A program made the position numbers and the translations under genes. A model generated the notes under the pieces. That model was not told the origin of the DNA, did not search any database, and worked only from the letters and a program-made list of their open reading frames with translations. 64,000 nt of DNA from Myxococcota bacterium (GTDB lineage: Bacteria; Myxococcota_A; Bradymonadia; UBA7976; UBA1532): assembly GCA_036337435.1 (NCBI GenBank), contig JAYZEG010000008.1:1-64000 (forward strand), in the 5' to 3' direction. Positions 18,151 to 63,895 of this stretch are shown piece by piece (position 1 is the stretch's first letter; the number at the start of each line of letters is the position of its first letter).

Positions 18151-19551
18151 CTAGACGCGTTTCTTCCACGTTTTACGCGAGATCGGCCTCGGATATGCTT
18201 CGTCGAGGCGTACACCGAACGCACCCGTTTCGAGGCTACAATCCCTGCCATTCATTTCATGAATGGTTGGCGTAGGAAGCTTGGCGATTTCAGGCACCCA
18301 CTGACGTATGTATCGAGCCTGTTTATCGTAACGCATGGACTGCCGGCGAATGCTAAAGCGATGACTCAGGGGGCTCGGACTGACGCCCGCAGACCGCTGC
18401 CAATTGCCCATGTTGGAACACGGCTCGTGATCAACCAGTTGAGTTTCGAAATATTTAGCCCCGACCCGCCAGTCCTGTTCCAGGTCGCGAGAGAAAAAGC
18501 ACGCAACGTTTTGACGCCCGCGGAAGGTCATATACCCGGTCGCAGCAAGCTCTCGCATGTGAGCGTCGATGAAAGGCCACCCGGTCATCCCCTTGCACCA
18601 GCGCTCGAAAATATCTGGGTCAGAATCCCATTGAAGGTCCGTCGAATTGATTCCGCTGAGGTCGTACACAGCTTGCCCTTTTGCGAGAGCGACGAGGTGA
18701 AAGAATTCCCTTTGATACAACTCTTGTGTCAGCTCCCGCGTCGACCGGTTATAAACACGGGCCTTCTCATAGTTTTTCAGTTCATGAAAAACCTGTCGCG
18801 GTGATAGGGCACCGTGCGCCAAGTATGCCGACAACCTGGACGTGGCATTTTGGGCCAGAAGCTGGTCGCGCTTGCGTGCGTAGTCTCTGGCGTGGTCTCC
18901 CTCACGGAAAAACGTGGATAGGCGCTTCAGGCCTTGCGACGACCCTCCTTGGAGCCCGTTGAGAAGACTTCGGCTCTCCGTGGACTGAGCCTGTCCAAAG
19001 TCGCCCAGAGTGGGCAATGGCTCATAGGCCGCATCAATGCCCACCAACGTGGGCCGCGCAACGGGTTTTGGGGGTACGCCTTGAGCCGCTATTAGCTCTT
19101 GAAATTCACCGAACTGCCAAGGCGGGTCGCGCAGCTCGTCGGGCAGGGTTTCTGGGTCGAATAGGGTATCGCCCCAATGTTGACTGGTGGCAATCCCGTC
19201 CTGATGAAGCTGCGACACAACATCCTCCACCAAAGCACGGTGGGGGGCGGTATAACGACTGTGCAAAAACACTTCATCCGCCTTCGACTCCGAGGCAAAT
19301 TTTGGCAGAGCGACCTCGGGCCTGCCGTGCAGTACGAACAAATCGGACCCGGCTTCCACATACTGGTCGCGTAAGTCTTGCAATGTTTCGAGGCGAAAAG
19401 CTCGGGTCTTGGGGTTTAGCTCGGCCCATTCGGCGTGGTTGAAGCACACCACGGGCAATACATTGCCGTCGTAGTGCGCAGCTGCGGCAACAAGGGCGGG
19501 GTTATCGGCCAGTCGTAAGTCGTTCTGATGCCAGAGGATTGCCAAGCTCAT
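18151..19551 (-). CDS. Divergent cryptochrome/photolyase (DASH-like)
   Basis: WHQNDLRLADNPAL, TSRLSAYLAHGALSPR, GMTGWPFIDAHMREL, RGRQNVA, DWRVGA, GNW; start ATG 19551 (ORF extends to 19578). Confidence 0.9.
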   Translation of the reverse strand: MSLAILWHQNDLRLADNPALVAAAAHYDGNVLPVVCFNHAEWAELNPKTRAFRLETLQDLRDQYVEAGSDLFVLHGRPEVALPKFASESKADEVFLHSRYTAPHRALVEDVVSQLHQDGIATSQHWGDTLFDPETLPDELRDPPWQFGEFQELIAAQGVPPKPVARPTLVGIDAAYEPLPTLGDFGQAQSTESRSLLNGLQGGSSQGLKRLSTFFREGDHARDYARKRDQLLAQNATSRLSAYLAHGALSPRQVFHELKNYEKARVYNRSTRELTQELYQREFFHLVALAKGQAVYDLSGINSTDLQWDSDPDIFERWCKGMTGWPFIDAHMRELAATGYMTFRGRQNVACFFSRDLEQDWRVGAKYFETQLVDHEPCSNMGNWQRSAGVSPSPLSHRFSIRRQSMRYDKQARYIRQWVPEIAKLPTPTIHEMNGRDCSLETGAFGVRLDEAYPRPISRKTWKKRV

Positions 19552-19663
19552 GCTTGGTAGAGTATTGAACCCAGCCAAACGTTACTCTAAATACCGCAGC
19601 TTTTATCTAAAGTTTCCAGACACACGGTGAAGGGTGACAAGTGCAGCCGAGCAAACGTCGATT

Positions 19664-21653: not shown

Positions 21654-22124
21654 TCACTTGCCGTTTCGCTGACCCTGCCTGTGCCTACGCCTATCGCCCC
21701 GTCGCACCCGTTGACGTTCCATGAGCGAAGTCAACTCTTGGCGTTGTTCCTCGGTGAGCATATCCCTGATGGTCAACATTGTGCCAACGCGCTTTTTACG
21801 GATATCCGTGCTTATCTGACCGATTTGCTCGATGAGCGTCATGACTTTAGCCCGCTGCGGCTCGCTGACGGACATCAGCTTTTCAAGTTCAAGTCGGTGT
21901 TCGTCGCGTTTGGCTTTGAGCCCGATCATAGACTTTCGAGTCTCGAAAAGAATGGCTCTAATCTTCCTCTCGGCGGCCTTATCAACACCCAGTTTTTTAA
22001 TCATCTTGCCCAAACGCATGGGATTGAGGTTACCTTGTTTTTGTCGGCGATCGGCATGCGCTTGAGCGCAAACTCCCAAAAGCAAAACAGCTATCAGAAT
22101 TAGGTGTGACCTTGCGTTTATCAT
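21654..22124 (-). CDS. Spy/CpxP/ZraP-family periplasmic protein
   Basis: SD AAGGAG before ATG 22124; signal peptide ending AHA; basic helical body with C-terminal LTEEQR (LTxxQ) motif. Confidence 0.85.
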   Translation of the reverse strand: MINARSHLILIAVLLLGVCAQAHADRRQKQGNLNPMRLGKMIKKLGVDKAAERKIRAILFETRKSMIGLKAKRDEHRLELEKLMSVSEPQRAKVMTLIEQIGQISTDIRKKRVGTMLTIRDMLTEEQRQELTSLMERQRVRRGDRRRHRQGQRNGK

Positions 22125-22134
22125 TGTATGCTCC

Positions 22135-22581
22135 TTAAATATCCATTGAATAAATGAGATCTGAAATCGCCGCCAATTCTGGCGTCCACAGCTCATCTAG
22201 CTTGTCTTCCGCATCACTCGAGACATCGAACGCGACCAAGTCCACTTCAAAATCATCGTGTCCCGAGACATCGTTCCAAGCCTCGTAAATGTTTAGAAAT
22301 TCGTCTTCAGCCATGGCGGCCGTTGGGGTCTCCACGTCCATTGTCACTGACCCAGCAAAACCGTGAGTCGGTCTCGACGCATCCGTAATCAGACCCGTTC
22401 CAATCAGAGAGCCACCTACGGCCGCAACGAGAACAAGACCCAACACCACTTGTTGTCGGCGCCGTCTCCGCTCAACCAGTCTATCAACACCAGCTCTGAA
22501 ACTGGCCTCAGACAAACCGGTCTCATCAGGCTGGTAAGCCTTTTTAAGCCGTTCAAAAAATTCGTTCTCTTCATTACTCAT
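22135..22581 (-). CDS. Single-pass membrane protein, anti-sigma-factor-like
   Basis: Short cytoplasmic N-terminus (FFERLKKAY), RRRRR positive-inside patch, one TM helix, acidic periplasmic tail; 10 bp upstream of the Spy/CpxP gene. Confidence 0.6.
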   Translation of the reverse strand: MSNEENEFFERLKKAYQPDETGLSEASFRAGVDRLVERRRRRQQVVLGLVLVAAVGGSLIGTGLITDASRPTHGFAGSVTMDVETPTAAMAEDEFLNIYEAWNDVSGHDDFEVDLVAFDVSSDAEDKLDELWTPELAAISDLIYSMDI

Positions 22582-22649
22582 CTTTCTTTCCTGGGCTCCC
22601 GCAATTCTCCAAAACCGCGGTCATTAGGGCCATGCGTTGTTTATTTGCT

Positions 22650-22677
22650 GACGCACATCAGGTGCGAACGGTTTACA
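22650..22677 (-). promoter_or_regulatory. ECF sigma-type promoter TGTAAACC-N16-CGTC driving the anti-sigma/Spy pair
   Basis: Minus strand TGTAAACCGTT-CGCACCTGATGT-GCGTC, about 70 nt upstream of ATG 22581; same motif and spacing at 62347-62374. Confidence 0.75.
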
Positions 22678-22852
22678 CGTCAGGGAAATTTTTTTTGAAA
22701 AAAGGGGCCGCTCTTGAGCCAGTCATCCTTGCCGCCAAAGTCATCGGGCTCATTCGCTCGACGATATAAAGCATCAAATTGACCCGAAGGGCTTGTGACA
22801 AGACGCCGTTAGCGATAGCGTCGGCCCTCGTATAGCAATGAGGACAGTTGCC

Positions 22853-24355
22853 ATGTGTGCAATCGTGGGCATCTCTGGGTGCGAACCTGTCAACCAGCGT
22901 ATTTATGACGCCTTGACGGTCCTGCAACATCGAGGTCAAGATGCGGCCGGCATAGCAACAACGGCTGGCGAGAGAATTCACCTGCATAAAGACAAAGGTT
23001 TAGTTCGCGACGTTTTTCGGACGCGTCATATGCGTGCGCTCTCTGGCACCACGGGCATCGGCCATGTTCGCTATCCGACCGCGGGCAGCAGTTCCGCCGA
23101 TGAATCTCAACCGCTCTACGTCAATTCGCCTCACGGTATCACCCTGGCCCACAATGGCAATCTGACGAACGCCGAAACCCTGCGGCGTGAACTGTTTGAA
23201 AAGAACAAACGTCACATCAACACGAACTCTGACTCGGAAATTCTCCTCAATGTTTTTGCTCACGAGTTGGCCATACAGGGGTTCGACAAATTGTTGCCAG
23301 GCCATATTTTTAACGCCATCCGAGGCGTGCACAAACGCTGTCGCGGTGCCTATGCTGTCACCTTGATGATCCCGGGGTTTGGCCTCGTCGCCTTTCGTGA
23401 CCCATATGGAATTCGCCCCCTGGTTCTTGGTCGACGAGACGTAGACGACGGCACCGAATATATGGTCGCCTCCGAATCTGTCGCCTTGGACGCTCTGAAT
23501 TTCCAACTGATTGGCGATATTCAGCCGGGGGAAGCGGTTGTCTTCAAAGATGGCGGCTCGCCCGCCATACGCCAGCAGTGCAGCATGACGCCGAGTCGCC
23601 GGCCGTGTTTATTTGAGTTTGTCTACCTGGCGAGGCCCGATTCCATCATCGATGGTATTTCAGTGTATAAGAGCCGACTCAGAATGGGTGATTTTCTGGC
23701 GAAAAAAATCTTAACTGAACGGCCCAACCACGACATCGACGTCGTCATCGCTGTGCCTGATACGAGCCGGACTGCGGCTATTCAGGTAAGCTATCATCTC
23801 GGTGCGAAACTCCGGGAAGGTTTTATCAAAAACCGCTACATCGGCCGGACGTTTATCATGCCCGGCCAAGCCGTCCGAAAGAAATCCGTACGCCAGAAAC
23901 TGAATCCGATCGGTTTAGAATTTAGAGATAAAGTCGTTCTCCTCGTCGATGACTCCATCGTCCGCGGAACGACCTGTAGCGAGATCATTCGAATGGCTCG
24001 TGAAGCTGGTGCTCGAAAAGTCTACTTTGCATCAGCCGCTCCACCGGTGCGGTATCCCAATGTCTACGGTATTGATATGCCCGCAGCCCCTGAGCTCATC
24101 GCTCACAATAAAACCATTGGAGAAATTGAAGAGGAAATCGGTGCTGACTGGCTCATCTATCAGGATTTAGAAGACCTCCGCTCCGCTGTGGCGGGCGGGC
24201 CGTCCAATGTACGACAGTTCGAAGACTGCGTGTTCTCGGGCTCGTACCTAGAAGATAGCATTAATGCCGCCTACCTGGACACGCTCGAAGCATCCCGTGC
24301 TGATGCAGTCCGTACTCAAGCCGATGCCGCTGTGTCCGAAATGGAAGAAGCGTAA
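22853..24355 (+). CDS. purF: Amidophosphoribosyltransferase
   Basis: MCAIVG (catalytic N-terminal Cys), [41 protein letters not shown]. Confidence 0.98.
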
Positions 24356-24480: not shown

Positions 24481-25845
24481 TTGAAGCGCGAAAAACTCAA
24501 CACGAACCATGTGGTCGTTTGGCATCGCACAGACCTGCGATTAGACGACAATTGGACACTGACAAAAGCAATCGAACTCGGCATCCCCCTCTGCGCCGTA
24601 TACATCATAGACCCGTTCTGGCTCGAGTCAGGTCTACAGGGGATTGAACGCTGCGGCTCCAAACGTTTTGGGGCACTCTTGGAATCACTCGCAGATTTGG
24701 CGGAACAATACCGTGCTGTCGGGCACGACTTAGTTGTCCGTGTGGGCGATACCGTGACTGAATTGGCTCGGATTGCAGCCGAGACCAACGCGAGTCACAT
24801 TTTTTTCACACGCGGCAAAACCACCTATGAGCGGCAGTTCGAAGACCGATTACAAGCTGCACTCGGTGATGAGCTGGAACTGGTTGGGCAATGGAATGAT
24901 GTTTTACTCAACCCGGATGTCGTCGCCGCTAATCCCATGGTCAGTTTAAAAACGTTCTCGAGATTCCGAAGGTCGGTCGAGGTCAATCTGAGCCTGCCGA
25001 GCCCTAGACCCGCGCCCAAAAAGTTAAATGCGAACCCTCTCGCGAAAACACAGGTACCACATCCAAATCAGTTTGGGCTCGAGGAATACTCCATTCACAG
25101 TGACTCACCCATCGCCGACCTCGACTTCGGTTCAACTGGGGCATTCAAACAGCTCGAACGATACCTATGGGACTCCGATTCCATTGCTCACTACAAGCAA
25201 ACCCGAAATGGAATGCTCCAATGGTCTGAGTCGAGTCGGCTATCAGTCTACCTAGCCTTTGGATGCATCTCGCCCATTCGACTTTTCCACGAGATCGACC
25301 GTTATGAACTAAATCGAACAAAGAACGAAAGCACCTACTGGCTCAAGTTTGAACTCCTGTGGCGGGAGTATTTTCATCATCTTGCATACAGCGTCGGAGC
25401 AAAATTGTTTCAACTCGGTGGAACCCAAGGTGTAAGCCGACGATGGCGAGGCGCTTGCGCCGACTTCGACGCCTGGTGCAAGGGTGAGACTGGGATACCA
25501 TTAATCGATGCCAATATGGTTGAGCTTAACGAGACCGGCTACATGTCAAACCGGGGCCGGCAAATCGTCGCGAGTTATCTCGCGAAGGAGTTGGGCATCG
25601 ATTGGCGGCTGGGTGCGGCTTGGTTCGAATGCCAACTCATAGACTATGACCCCTGCGTCAACTGGGGCAATTGGCAATATCAGGCTGGCGTCGGTGTCGA
25701 TGCAAAAGACCGCCGTTTCAATGTCCAACTGCAGGCAAAACGTTACGACGCACGGACGACCTACGTGCGACGATGGCTAGGCGAACGCTACACCAACGTA
25801 ACCAATGAGCAGCTGATCGCACTCAACGCCGCGCCACGGCCCTAG
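24481..25845 (+). CDS. cry: DASH-family cryptochrome/photolyase (canonical)
   Basis: WHRTDLRLDDN, YKQTRNGM, YWLKFELLWREYF, GYMSNRGRQIVASYL, LIDYDPCVNWGNWQYQAGVG. Confidence 0.93.
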   Translation: MKREKLNTNHVVVWHRTDLRLDDNWTLTKAIELGIPLCAVYIIDPFWLESGLQGIERCGSKRFGALLESLADLAEQYRAVGHDLVVRVGDTVTELARIAAETNASHIFFTRGKTTYERQFEDRLQAALGDELELVGQWNDVLLNPDVVAANPMVSLKTFSRFRRSVEVNLSLPSPRPAPKKLNANPLAKTQVPHPNQFGLEEYSIHSDSPIADLDFGSTGAFKQLERYLWDSDSIAHYKQTRNGMLQWSESSRLSVYLAFGCISPIRLFHEIDRYELNRTKNESTYWLKFELLWREYFHHLAYSVGAKLFQLGGTQGVSRRWRGACADFDAWCKGETGIPLIDANMVELNETGYMSNRGRQIVASYLAKELGIDWRLGAAWFECQLIDYDPCVNWGNWQYQAGVGVDAKDRRFNVQLQAKRYDARTTYVRRWLGERYTNVTNEQLIALNAAPRP

Positions 25846-62346: not shown

Positions 62347-62374
62347 TGTAAACCGTTTAAGGGTGGCTCGCGTC
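62347..62374 (+). promoter_or_regulatory. ECF sigma-type (likely autoregulatory) promoter TGTAAACC-N16-CGTC
   Basis: TGTAAACCGTT-TAAGGGTGGCTC-GCGTC about 30 nt before the sigma start; same motif at 22650-22677(-). Confidence 0.78.
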
Positions 62375-62403
62375 TATGTTGATGTTGGTAAAGAGGAGCA
62401 GGT

Positions 62404-62943
62404 TTGTCGAACGAGGCTGAAATGGCGGTATGCGCGCGGACTAAGGCTGAGCTGTTCAGTGATTTTGTTAGTCGGTATCGACTGTCGGCGATTCGTTTGG
62501 CGTGGCGATTGCTCGGTCGACACAAAGCGGCTGCTGAAGATGTTGCTCAACACGCTTTTGCGAAGGCGTGGCATCGTATCGATCAGTACCGCGGAGAAGC
62601 GCAAATTAAAACTTGGTTTAATCGCATCTTGATCAACCAAGTTCGAAGCTATCTCCGATGGGCTTCAGTCCGAGAGCGAGCACGTTTTTTTATGGGTCCG
62701 GCTAAAATCATCCACCCGTTGGAAAATGACCACGCTCTGGCACAACGCATTGAAATTGCACTCCAGCAGCTCACCCAGAGCCAGCGTGAGGTTTTCACCC
62801 TTGTTTATTTGGAAGGCCTGTCTGTTCCTGAAGCGGCTGATGTTCTCAGAAAAGCCCCCGGGACTCTCAAGTCTCATCTTTTTCGAGCGATTAGAAAACT
62901 GAGGCAGGAACTGGCTGACCTAGAGCAAGACCTGTTCTGGTAG
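62404..62943 (+). CDS. ECF-type RNA polymerase sigma factor
   Basis: SD AGAGGAG + TTG; region 2 AAEDVAQHAF...KTWFNRILIN; region 4 QREVFTLVYLEGLSVPEAADVL...GTLKSHLFRA. Confidence 0.93.
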   Translation: MSNEAEMAVCARTKAELFSDFVSRYRLSAIRLAWRLLGRHKAAAEDVAQHAFAKAWHRIDQYRGEAQIKTWFNRILINQVRSYLRWASVRERARFFMGPAKIIHPLENDHALAQRIEIALQQLTQSQREVFTLVYLEGLSVPEAADVLRKAPGTLKSHLFRAIRKLRQELADLEQDLFW

Positions 62944-63007: not shown

Positions 63008-63895
63008 TTAGTTGCAATTATTTGAACAATTCCGCCGAGCGCGCCTCCGACGTTGGGCACAGCTAACCTCAGAGCCGCCATTGGATAAGCAAACAGCCTC
63101 GATCCTTTCGCTCCGTTCGACGCACGCCTCCGCACATGCTTCAGGATCGTCAACATCCACGCCACTCCGGTTTCTACATTCGTCTCGGACACAGGTTCGT
63201 AAAGCCCCTCGACCGCGCTGTATGCAATCCTCCGCCGTTCCCCCACTCGCCCTGCAGTCCTCGACCAGCCTATCGGCCTGACCCCGGCAATCGTCACGAC
63301 AGTCATCATCCGCACCACCCACGTTGCCGTCGCCCATGCGTCCACAGTCACGTCTGACGCAGCTCCTTACGTTGATTCGATGCTGCCGTTCGCAGTCGGC
63401 GTCGGACCCGCCTGCGTTTGTACACTCGGAAGCCAATGCCTCTGCCTGCTCCCGACACGAAGTTCGGCATTCAGCCTCGGTACCCTCCATATTGCCGCCC
63501 CTCATCATGCCGCCACATACGTCCTGTACGCAGGAACGCATGGCCACTCGACGCTGTTGTTCGCATTCACTGTCTGATCCGCCAGACGCATGACAATCCG
63601 AACCAAATCGGGCAGCACGCTCTCCACATTCAGCCCGGCAATCCACGTCTATGGTTCCATCATTGACCTGATTTAAGCCGCCATCTTGGATTGGTTCGGG
63701 TGCACTGTCATGGCCCAAAACCATACCTCCCGAGTCAGCTCCGGGCATCCCGCGGTTCAAACTGCCATCAATGGCACTCGATGATTCGTTAGAGAGGCCC
63801 CCGTCCCATTCCAAACTCTGCTCATCCATTGAGCAACCGAAAAACCAGAAGGTCATTAATCCGAGGATAAGCCTCATATTAGCTCTATTTTTCAT
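63008..63895 (-). CDS. Lipoprotein with four 6-Cys repeats
   Basis: Lipobox FFG-C; four copies of C-x3-C-x10-C-x9-C-x10-C-x3/4-C. Confidence 0.88.
   Translation of the reverse strand: MKNRANMRLILGLMTFWFFGCSMDEQSLEWDGGLSNESSSAIDGSLNRGMPGADSGGMVLGHDSAPEPIQDGGLNQVNDGTIDVDCRAECGERAARFGSDCHASGGSDSECEQQRRVAMRSCVQDVCGGMMRGGNMEGTEAECRTSCREQAEALASECTNAGGSDADCERQHRINVRSCVRRDCGRMGDGNVGGADDDCRDDCRGQADRLVEDCRASGGTAEDCIQRGRGALRTCVRDECRNRSGVDVDDPEACAEACVERSERIEAVCLSNGGSEVSCAQRRRRARRNCSNNCN

Follow-up and report, generated by a model that had tools for sequence, protein, structure and literature searches.

Why does an ECF sigma gene with no anti-sigma gene behind it share its upstream motif with an anti-sigma-like gene 40 kb away? 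The question is raised by the 64,000-nt stretch of DNA analyzed here, which we refer to as the window. We propose that an ancestral operon encoding the sigma factor, an anti-sigma-like protein, and a Spy-fold protein has very probably been split into two parts 40 kb apart, with the same conserved motif, likely the sigma factor's own promoter, ahead of each. The three genes are homologous to those of intact triads in relatives, the triad is split in the window, the motif stands before both halves, and the triad of another genome, G107, is split as well. The features concerned are these:

62347-62374, + strand: P-sigma, a predicted ECF promoter with -35 box TGTAAACC and -10 box GCGTC; a TTG start lies 29 nt downstream
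62404-62943, + strand: ECF sigma factor, 179 aa, TTG start, with sigma2 and sigma4 domains only
63008-63895, - strand: convergent Cys-rich repeat protein, in the place taken by the anti-sigma gene in relatives
22853-24355, + strand: purF, divergent from the anti-sigma unit, in the place taken by the sigma gene in relatives
22650-22677, - strand: P-anti, the second predicted promoter copy, with 68 nt from its -10 box to the ATG of the anti-sigma-like gene
22135-22581, - strand: anti-sigma-like protein, 148 aa, with two helices in an N-terminus of ~44 aa, followed by one transmembrane helix and an acidic tail
21654-22124, - strand: Spy/CpxP/ZraP/CnrX-fold protein, 156 aa, with a hydrophobic N-terminal signal-like segment and a net charge of +20

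The protein encoded at 62404 scores above the Pfam cut-offs for Sigma70_r2 (residues 22-85) and Sigma70_r4_2 (115-166 of 179) and reaches 82.5 bits with TIGR02937, for which the cut-off is 42.9. Its sigma2 and sigma4 domains, joined by a short linker, place it among the ECF (sigma70 group 4) factors; none of the 25 listed subfamily models reaches its cut-off, and the ortholog group is present in a single copy in the genome. An earlier note on this DNA had pointed out that no anti-sigma gene lies downstream of the sigma gene and no sigma gene upstream of the anti-sigma/Spy pair, and both statements hold: the next gene on the sigma side (63008-63895) is convergent, and purF is divergent from the pair. 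The product of the convergent gene is secreted lipoprotein-like, with repeated C-x3-C helical units and no Pfam or NCBIfam match.

The motif pair itself, TGTAAACCGTT-N12-GCGTC at 22650-22677(-) and 62347-62374(+), was found as that note had described it, with 16 identical positions and equal spacing, and its estimate of about 70 nt between promoter and anti-sigma-like gene agrees with the 68 nt that we measured from the -10 box. The whole 4,380,597-base genome holds exactly two exact matches; 0.002 would be expected from base composition, a rarity that is overstated because the pattern was written post hoc. An A8 tract (22689-22696) lies just upstream of P-anti. Two small details of the earlier description needed revision. 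The ECF promoter type stands, with the spacing corrected from AAC-N16-CGT to AAC-N17-CGT, and the TT after GTAAACCG is not conserved within the family. The proposed genome-wide scan for TGTAAACC-N16-CGTC returned three matches against 0.51 expected, with the third match falling inside a 770-aa coding sequence on contig C24, which leaves a wider regulon unsupported. Still looser forms of the motif were no commoner at the true spacing than at others (TGTAAAC-Nx-CGTC: 3 matches at x=17, 0-5 elsewhere), so the short motif core alone is uninformative.

We ranked sites genome-wide with two matrices trained without the window's sites, one from 14 promoters, the sister species' among them, and one from 45. 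P-sigma and P-anti took ranks 1 and 4 with the 14-promoter matrix, and ranks 3 and 13 of 8.75 million positions with the broader one, where the 12 sites scoring above P-anti are mostly intragenic. A site as good as P-anti was found in the 200 upstream bases of none of 2,877 ORFs of at least 200 aa, a set that leaves out both target genes, which are shorter. The spacers of P-sigma and P-anti are unrelated and their similarity is confined to the boxes, which is the pattern expected from selection on a motif. A sigma-70 promoter scan detected no promoter at either site. Among 60 non-split sigma loci in relatives, 45 carry GTAAMCC-N15-G-N-G-T-C within 200 nt upstream of the sigma gene when one mismatch is allowed, with a pattern partly derived from the window's own motif; 2 of these 45 score low by matrix. 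Autoregulation is common among ECFs and the usual route to their motifs in the accessible text of PMC7776599. From the sequence comparisons, the shared motif is likely the sigma factor's own promoter, through which the sigma factor would activate its own gene as well as that of its distant predicted inhibitor.

The predicted regulon looks like just these two promoters, since the other high-scoring sites are mostly intragenic and matrix-dependent. For close to half of all ECFs, at most three targets are predicted, according to the same partly accessible source (PMC7776599). Four genes, named by sequence reading, were considered as further targets and set aside, their candidate upstream sites being unconfirmed: a TrkA-like gene (C13:16909), a haemolysin-III-like membrane protein (C41:1814), a secreted protease-like gene (C95:79520), and a secreted hydrolase-like gene (C11:74373).

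If the two halves derive from one operon, relatives should hold the three genes together, and the earlier note had asked for this comparison. An orthologous sigma gene is present in 14 of the 27 other genomes of the family and in 48 of 401 genomes sampled across the phylum. We compared 63 orthologous sigma loci, 60 of them not split, with L081 and L085 dropped as duplicates. The three orthologs are contiguous in all 14 sigma-bearing genomes of the family, each with a Spy ortholog within ~1.1 kb downstream of the sigma gene on the same strand, and the full triad is present at 55 of the 60 non-split loci overall. A homolog of the 148-aa protein stands directly behind the sigma gene at 58 of the 60, the remaining two being one contig end and one match below threshold. 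The five loci short of a full triad comprise two early contig ends, one fused anti-sigma, one locus without a Spy match, and one with a Spy gene and no anti-sigma match. A start/stop overlap of four bases was counted by hand at 49 of the 60 loci.

We searched all 19,081 ORFs of the genome with a profile of 13 relatives' sigma-adjacent genes, built without the window's protein. The only significant match is 22135-22581 (E 1.4e-9; the next match has E 1.4). Because this match is unique and the triads are contiguous in relatives, the two halves in the window are orthologs of one operon. In the sigma tree, a clade formed by the window and its sister L043 lies inside the intact triads, its nearest branches being G003 and then G018/G042. 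The split label changes twice on the tree, both times nested among intact loci with starred support; a split lineage nested within intact triads makes the split the derived state. The proposal of the earlier note that one triad broke and both halves kept the cognate promoter is thus supported by the contiguous relatives, the conserved motif, and the tree nesting.

Several further observations were made during this comparison. A second Spy-like gene stands directly ahead of the sigma gene at 14 of the 60 intact loci (L079, L080, L082, L084, L086, L162-L165, L167, L169, L170, L177, and L183). At L204 (G287:C1:4191284-4193104), the anti-sigma N-terminus and membrane helix have become joined to a 606-aa protein. 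A Spy gene does not follow, and two Spy-like genes are found 4 Mb off. Two genomes of the window's own genus, G001 (100% complete) and G002 (81%), yielded no sigma or Spy ortholog with the queries used; G001 yielded no purF match at E 1e-100 either. Most of the closest taxon-labelled relatives are Myxococcota/Deltaproteobacteria, and the sequencing runs that contain the window stretch are labelled marine or seawater metagenomes.

The other split is found in G107, which belongs to a different family of the phylum; its triad is divided into two convergent units (L203, G107:C2:77728-81332). The anti-sigma gene, the Spy-like gene, and two more genes encoding a 325-aa protein with a YHYH motif and a 218-aa protein lie on one strand, facing the sigma gene, which is preceded on its own strand by a 236-aa lipoprotein-like gene; these 325-aa, 218-aa, and 236-aa genes may be further regulon members. 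Within 14 kb, the two best matrix sites (16.8 and 14.7; the next scores 7.2) stand before the sigma unit and the anti-sigma unit. A pattern covering both sites, and written from them, has 5 matches in 7.2 Mb compared with 2 for a control. The nearest tree relative of G107, G268, has an intact triad, which together with the two label changes on the tree indicates that this second split is independent. The motif is therefore present on both halves in 2 of 2 splits, a small sample of events.

How the window's anti-sigma unit came by its promoter is a separate question. The simplest explanation, to which we give somewhat better than an even chance, is that the promoter-bearing region was duplicated and that reciprocal gene loss followed, which would leave a promoter copy ahead of each half. 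We found no duplicate remnant elsewhere in the genome and no promoter-region DNA similarity outside the boxes. The anti-sigma leader was considered as a remnant of the sigma 3′ end and rejected in that role: its frame ending in an ATGA overlap bears a faint likeness to the sigma tail (p 0.11-0.13), and equally high scores are reached by 11% of 2,844 other leaders and by 13% of 5,000 shuffled sequences.

The same regulation could have arisen by another course, a single inversion of the 40-kb segment at 22.6-62.95 kb, with P-anti either new or recruited from another regulon member. Flipping the segment from purF to the sigma gene sets the sigma 3′ end against the anti-sigma start on one strand, a single 78-kb contig carries both halves in a genome of 4.4 Mb, and an inversion would account for the missing remnant. 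Spare cognate promoters may also pre-exist, given that the G107 sigma gene lies behind another gene that is itself under the motif and that 14 of 60 intact loci have a second Spy-like gene ahead of the sigma gene. We nevertheless consider an inversion somewhat unlikely, as a fitting orientation has an even chance of arising at random, a de novo origin would have to account for as many as 16 matching positions, and the flanking gene order is common to no relative. Across 79 loci compared with the 82 ORFs of the contig, synteny amounted to a 32% identical acyl-CoA dehydrogenase paralog and one 37% match, and G003, the nearest intact relative, has no neighbors in common with the window.

Around the Spy gene, L031 and L033 (G016 and G023) have an acyl-CoA dehydrogenase gene after the Spy gene, as the window does, and the 32% identity marks it as the paralog; the acyl-CoA dehydrogenase ortholog in G003 is 85% identical. 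Photolyase/cryptochrome-like genes, named by sequence reading, at 18151-19578(-) and 24481-25845(+) flank the block of acyl-CoA dehydrogenase, Spy, anti-sigma, and purF genes.

With duplication and reciprocal loss as the preferred origin, we turn to what the split system may do. The 148-aa protein would hold the sigma factor at the membrane with its cytoplasmic end of ~44 residues, by analogy with class II CnrY on CnrH. The exported basic Spy-fold protein would act both as a chaperone output and as a brake on the acidic periplasmic tail of the anti-sigma; unfolded envelope proteins would titrate the Spy-fold protein away, upon which the anti-sigma would release the sigma factor or be cut. Free sigma would then transcribe both units, so that the positive and negative feedback loops are both kept. 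With the operon broken, anti-sigma output would no longer be tied to that of the sigma factor by translational coupling; the promoter copy ahead of the anti-sigma gene would restore the negative feedback and would for that reason be kept by selection. CpxP is a chaperone and a brake for CpxA.

The 156-aa protein matches Pfam Metal_resist (PF13801) above cut-off and LTXXQ below it. The Spy-family profile matches Spy at E 6e-5 and places Spy above CnrX. The structure model (pLDDT 86) has STV, Spy, ZraP, CpxP, and CnrX as its top Foldseek rows, all of them weak (E 0.03-0.1, every one above 0.001). An LTEEQ sequence at residues 123-127, whose L and Q are invariant, is consistent with the Spy fold, which is characterized by a signal-like N-terminus, a helical hairpin, and an LTxxQ motif. 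Within the window's family, the anti-sigma tail carries a charge of -11 to -28 and the Spy-fold partner +6 to +18. Tail and Spy charge are anti-correlated (rho -0.64, n=57 triads), a relation confounded by kinship and weak outside the window's family (rho -0.28, p 0.07, n=42); Spy homologs are net positive in 30 of the 57 triads.

Given the charge pattern and the unconserved metal ligands, we favor, by analogy, the reading as an envelope protein-folding response, with chaperone and brake as the proposed functions of the Spy-fold protein. The other reading is transition-metal sensing as in CnrYXH or ZraP, with the Spy-fold protein as the metal receptor. Metal_resist is indeed the best Pfam family, CnrX and ZraP are among the fold neighbors, and such triads are tied to heavy-metal stress by context in the accessible text of PMC7826278. 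We judge metal sensing unlikely because, in the Spy-homolog alignment, the best His column reaches 40% and the best Met column 56%, neither being the conserved ligand set of the CnrX/ZraP subtype, while the conserved columns are structural (LG.D, P, and LTPxQR) and Spy outranks CnrX by profile.

The 148-aa protein has a transmembrane helix at residues 45-63 (hydropathy peak 2.15) and a C-terminal tail with a net charge of -19, and its predicted structure (pTM 0.31) places helices at 3-15 and 25-63. No Pfam family scores above cut-off. Class I anti-sigmas (ASDI) have a four-helix domain of at least 50 aa, with a mean of ~101, before the membrane in the accessible text of PMC7406223; here ~44 aa and two helices precede the membrane helix. 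As modeled, this short two-helix cytoplasmic part followed by one transmembrane helix fits the Class II (CnrY-like) architecture, and a profile search against the sequences of solved structures, made for homology to CnrY, returned no anti-sigma at E up to 10. The N-terminal pattern F..RLK.AY.P and F30 are kept in the window's protein. A net-negative periplasmic tail is common to 59 of 59 short anti-sigma homologs, 50 of which end in PxDY at the C-terminus. The family's C-terminal LPxDY motif (P 92% and Y 90% conserved) is replaced in the window's protein (22135-22185) and is missing also in G107 and G268.

This loss, together with the long branch on which the fast-evolving lineage sits (0.57), makes some drift of anti-sigma function possible. 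Taken further, the sigma factor would co-transcribe the pair while the 148-aa protein, no longer or never its anti-sigma, would be a mere target or a decaying relic, a reading that could draw on the loss of LPxDY in both split lineages, the long branch, and the fact that the protein matches none of the known anti-sigma families or structures. We hold it to be very unlikely: the frame is open, the N-terminal pattern, transmembrane helix, and acidic tail are kept, a full-length copy 97% identical to the protein occurs in another contig, and G268, an intact triad, also lacks LPxDY.

We retain the anti-sigma reading and come to the physical reality of the split. The sister sigma gene in L043 encodes a protein with 71% identity and has the same order as in the window: kinase, 316-aa gene, motif, sigma, and convergent Cys-rich gene, the last encoding a protein with more repeats (362 aa). 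No anti-sigma or Spy match was found within the L043 locus. The window (62375-62389) and L043 (1807-1821) agree in all 15 bases that follow the -10 box, while the spacer differs; these bases may be a conserved start region or a 5′ RNA element. At L043 2372-2380, an ATGA overlap at the end of the orphan sigma gene opens a frame of 6 codons, possibly a relic of a lost anti-sigma start and possibly a chance feature. Since the orphan sigma gene and its motif also occur in the sister species, we regard a mis-assembly as unlikely. At the anti-sigma end, positions 22318-22702 are matched by a 385-base contig from a different sequencing run, which differs at 9 letters and joins the anti-sigma gene, leader, and motif; the five differences listed are all outside the motif, and the other four are undisplayed. 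The public contigs listed contain no bridge from the motif to purF, and the sigma-side junction rests on the L043 comparison. That the genome is in 95 contigs and 87% complete, with the purF junction unspanned among those public contigs, could point to mis-assembly as the cause of the split, or to chance as the source of the second motif. We think this hardly credible, because a mis-join creates no second motif, another run's contig joins motif and anti-sigma gene, the sigma flanks are equal in the sister species, and G107 repeats the pattern.

A broader conjecture, possible though on balance doubtful, can be drawn from the split. Whenever such an operon breaks, selection would always make both halves keep or gain the sigma promoter in place of translational coupling, and a shared motif would generally pair orphan ECF sigmas with distant, unannotated anti-sigmas; the Spy-fold protein would act as a periplasmic sensor that works without metal and binds the acidic tail by charge, a CpxP-like brake joined to an ECF switch. 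ECF classification assigns anti-sigmas by gene neighborhood and so leaves orphan sigmas without a regulator; here an orphan's candidate partner could be found from sequence alone through the sigma factor's own predicted promoter motif. The two splits serve as independent natural experiments on what must stay when a coupled sigma/anti-sigma operon breaks. The comparison also defines an uncharacterized ECF group, found in 48 of the 401 genomes sampled across the phylum and marked by a clear promoter consensus, as well as an anti-sigma family without a Pfam model, which makes the system a candidate orthogonal switch. The textbook mechanism is unchanged by the split-operon finding.

The earlier note had called the sigma/anti-sigma/Spy triad a familiar layout, and it is indeed published: in the accessible group descriptions, ECF111, ECF290, ECF281s2, and ECF03s10 have triads of sigma, single-helix anti-sigma, and heavy-metal-resistance/LTXXQ protein (PMC7826278, Casas-Pastor et al. 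2021). The window's relatives follow the same order, with a Pfam-less membrane protein at +1 and a Spy-fold protein at +2, a layout absent from the window and present at 55 of the 60 non-split loci. The predicted promoters of ECF111 (TTGAACCT/GTCTAAA) and ECF03 (TTAAACC/TC) are related. Unlike these groups, compared here by their descriptions only, the window has a split operon and the -35 sequence GTAAACC, and the taxa are partly different. CnrYXH of Cupriavidus metallidurans (ECF291) has a similar short two-helix membrane anti-sigma and a periplasmic Spy/CpxP-fold partner; its promoter is autoregulated, as the window's is by prediction only. In CnrYXH, however, the anti-sigma is at -2 and CnrX is a Ni/Co sensor, whereas the metal ligands of the window's family are unconserved and no efflux operon lies beside the window's genes (PMC7826278, as far as its accessible text describes the system).

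An anti-sigma gene apart from its sigma gene on the chromosome is likewise known, from RpoE2-RsiA1/RsiA2 of Sinorhizobium meliloti (PMC6180224, PMC8103513). As the accessible parts of the two papers describe it, one anti-sigma stays in the sigma operon there and the distant one is a second, soluble paralog, although the papers name opposite RsiA paralogs as the distant one; in the window, by comparison, the only anti-sigma has moved away, together with the Spy gene. Orphan sigmas also occur within a triad group, in ECF281 s1, s5, s7, and s10, for which the authors suppose an anti-sigma elsewhere (PMC7826278, accessible text). That partner is supposed and unlocated, whereas the window offers a located candidate partner with the motif. 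In the literature searched, which covered sources outside subscription journals, we found no triad described as split with a promoter common to both halves. The triad layout and unlinked anti-sigmas are already described; the split with a shared motif is the new part.
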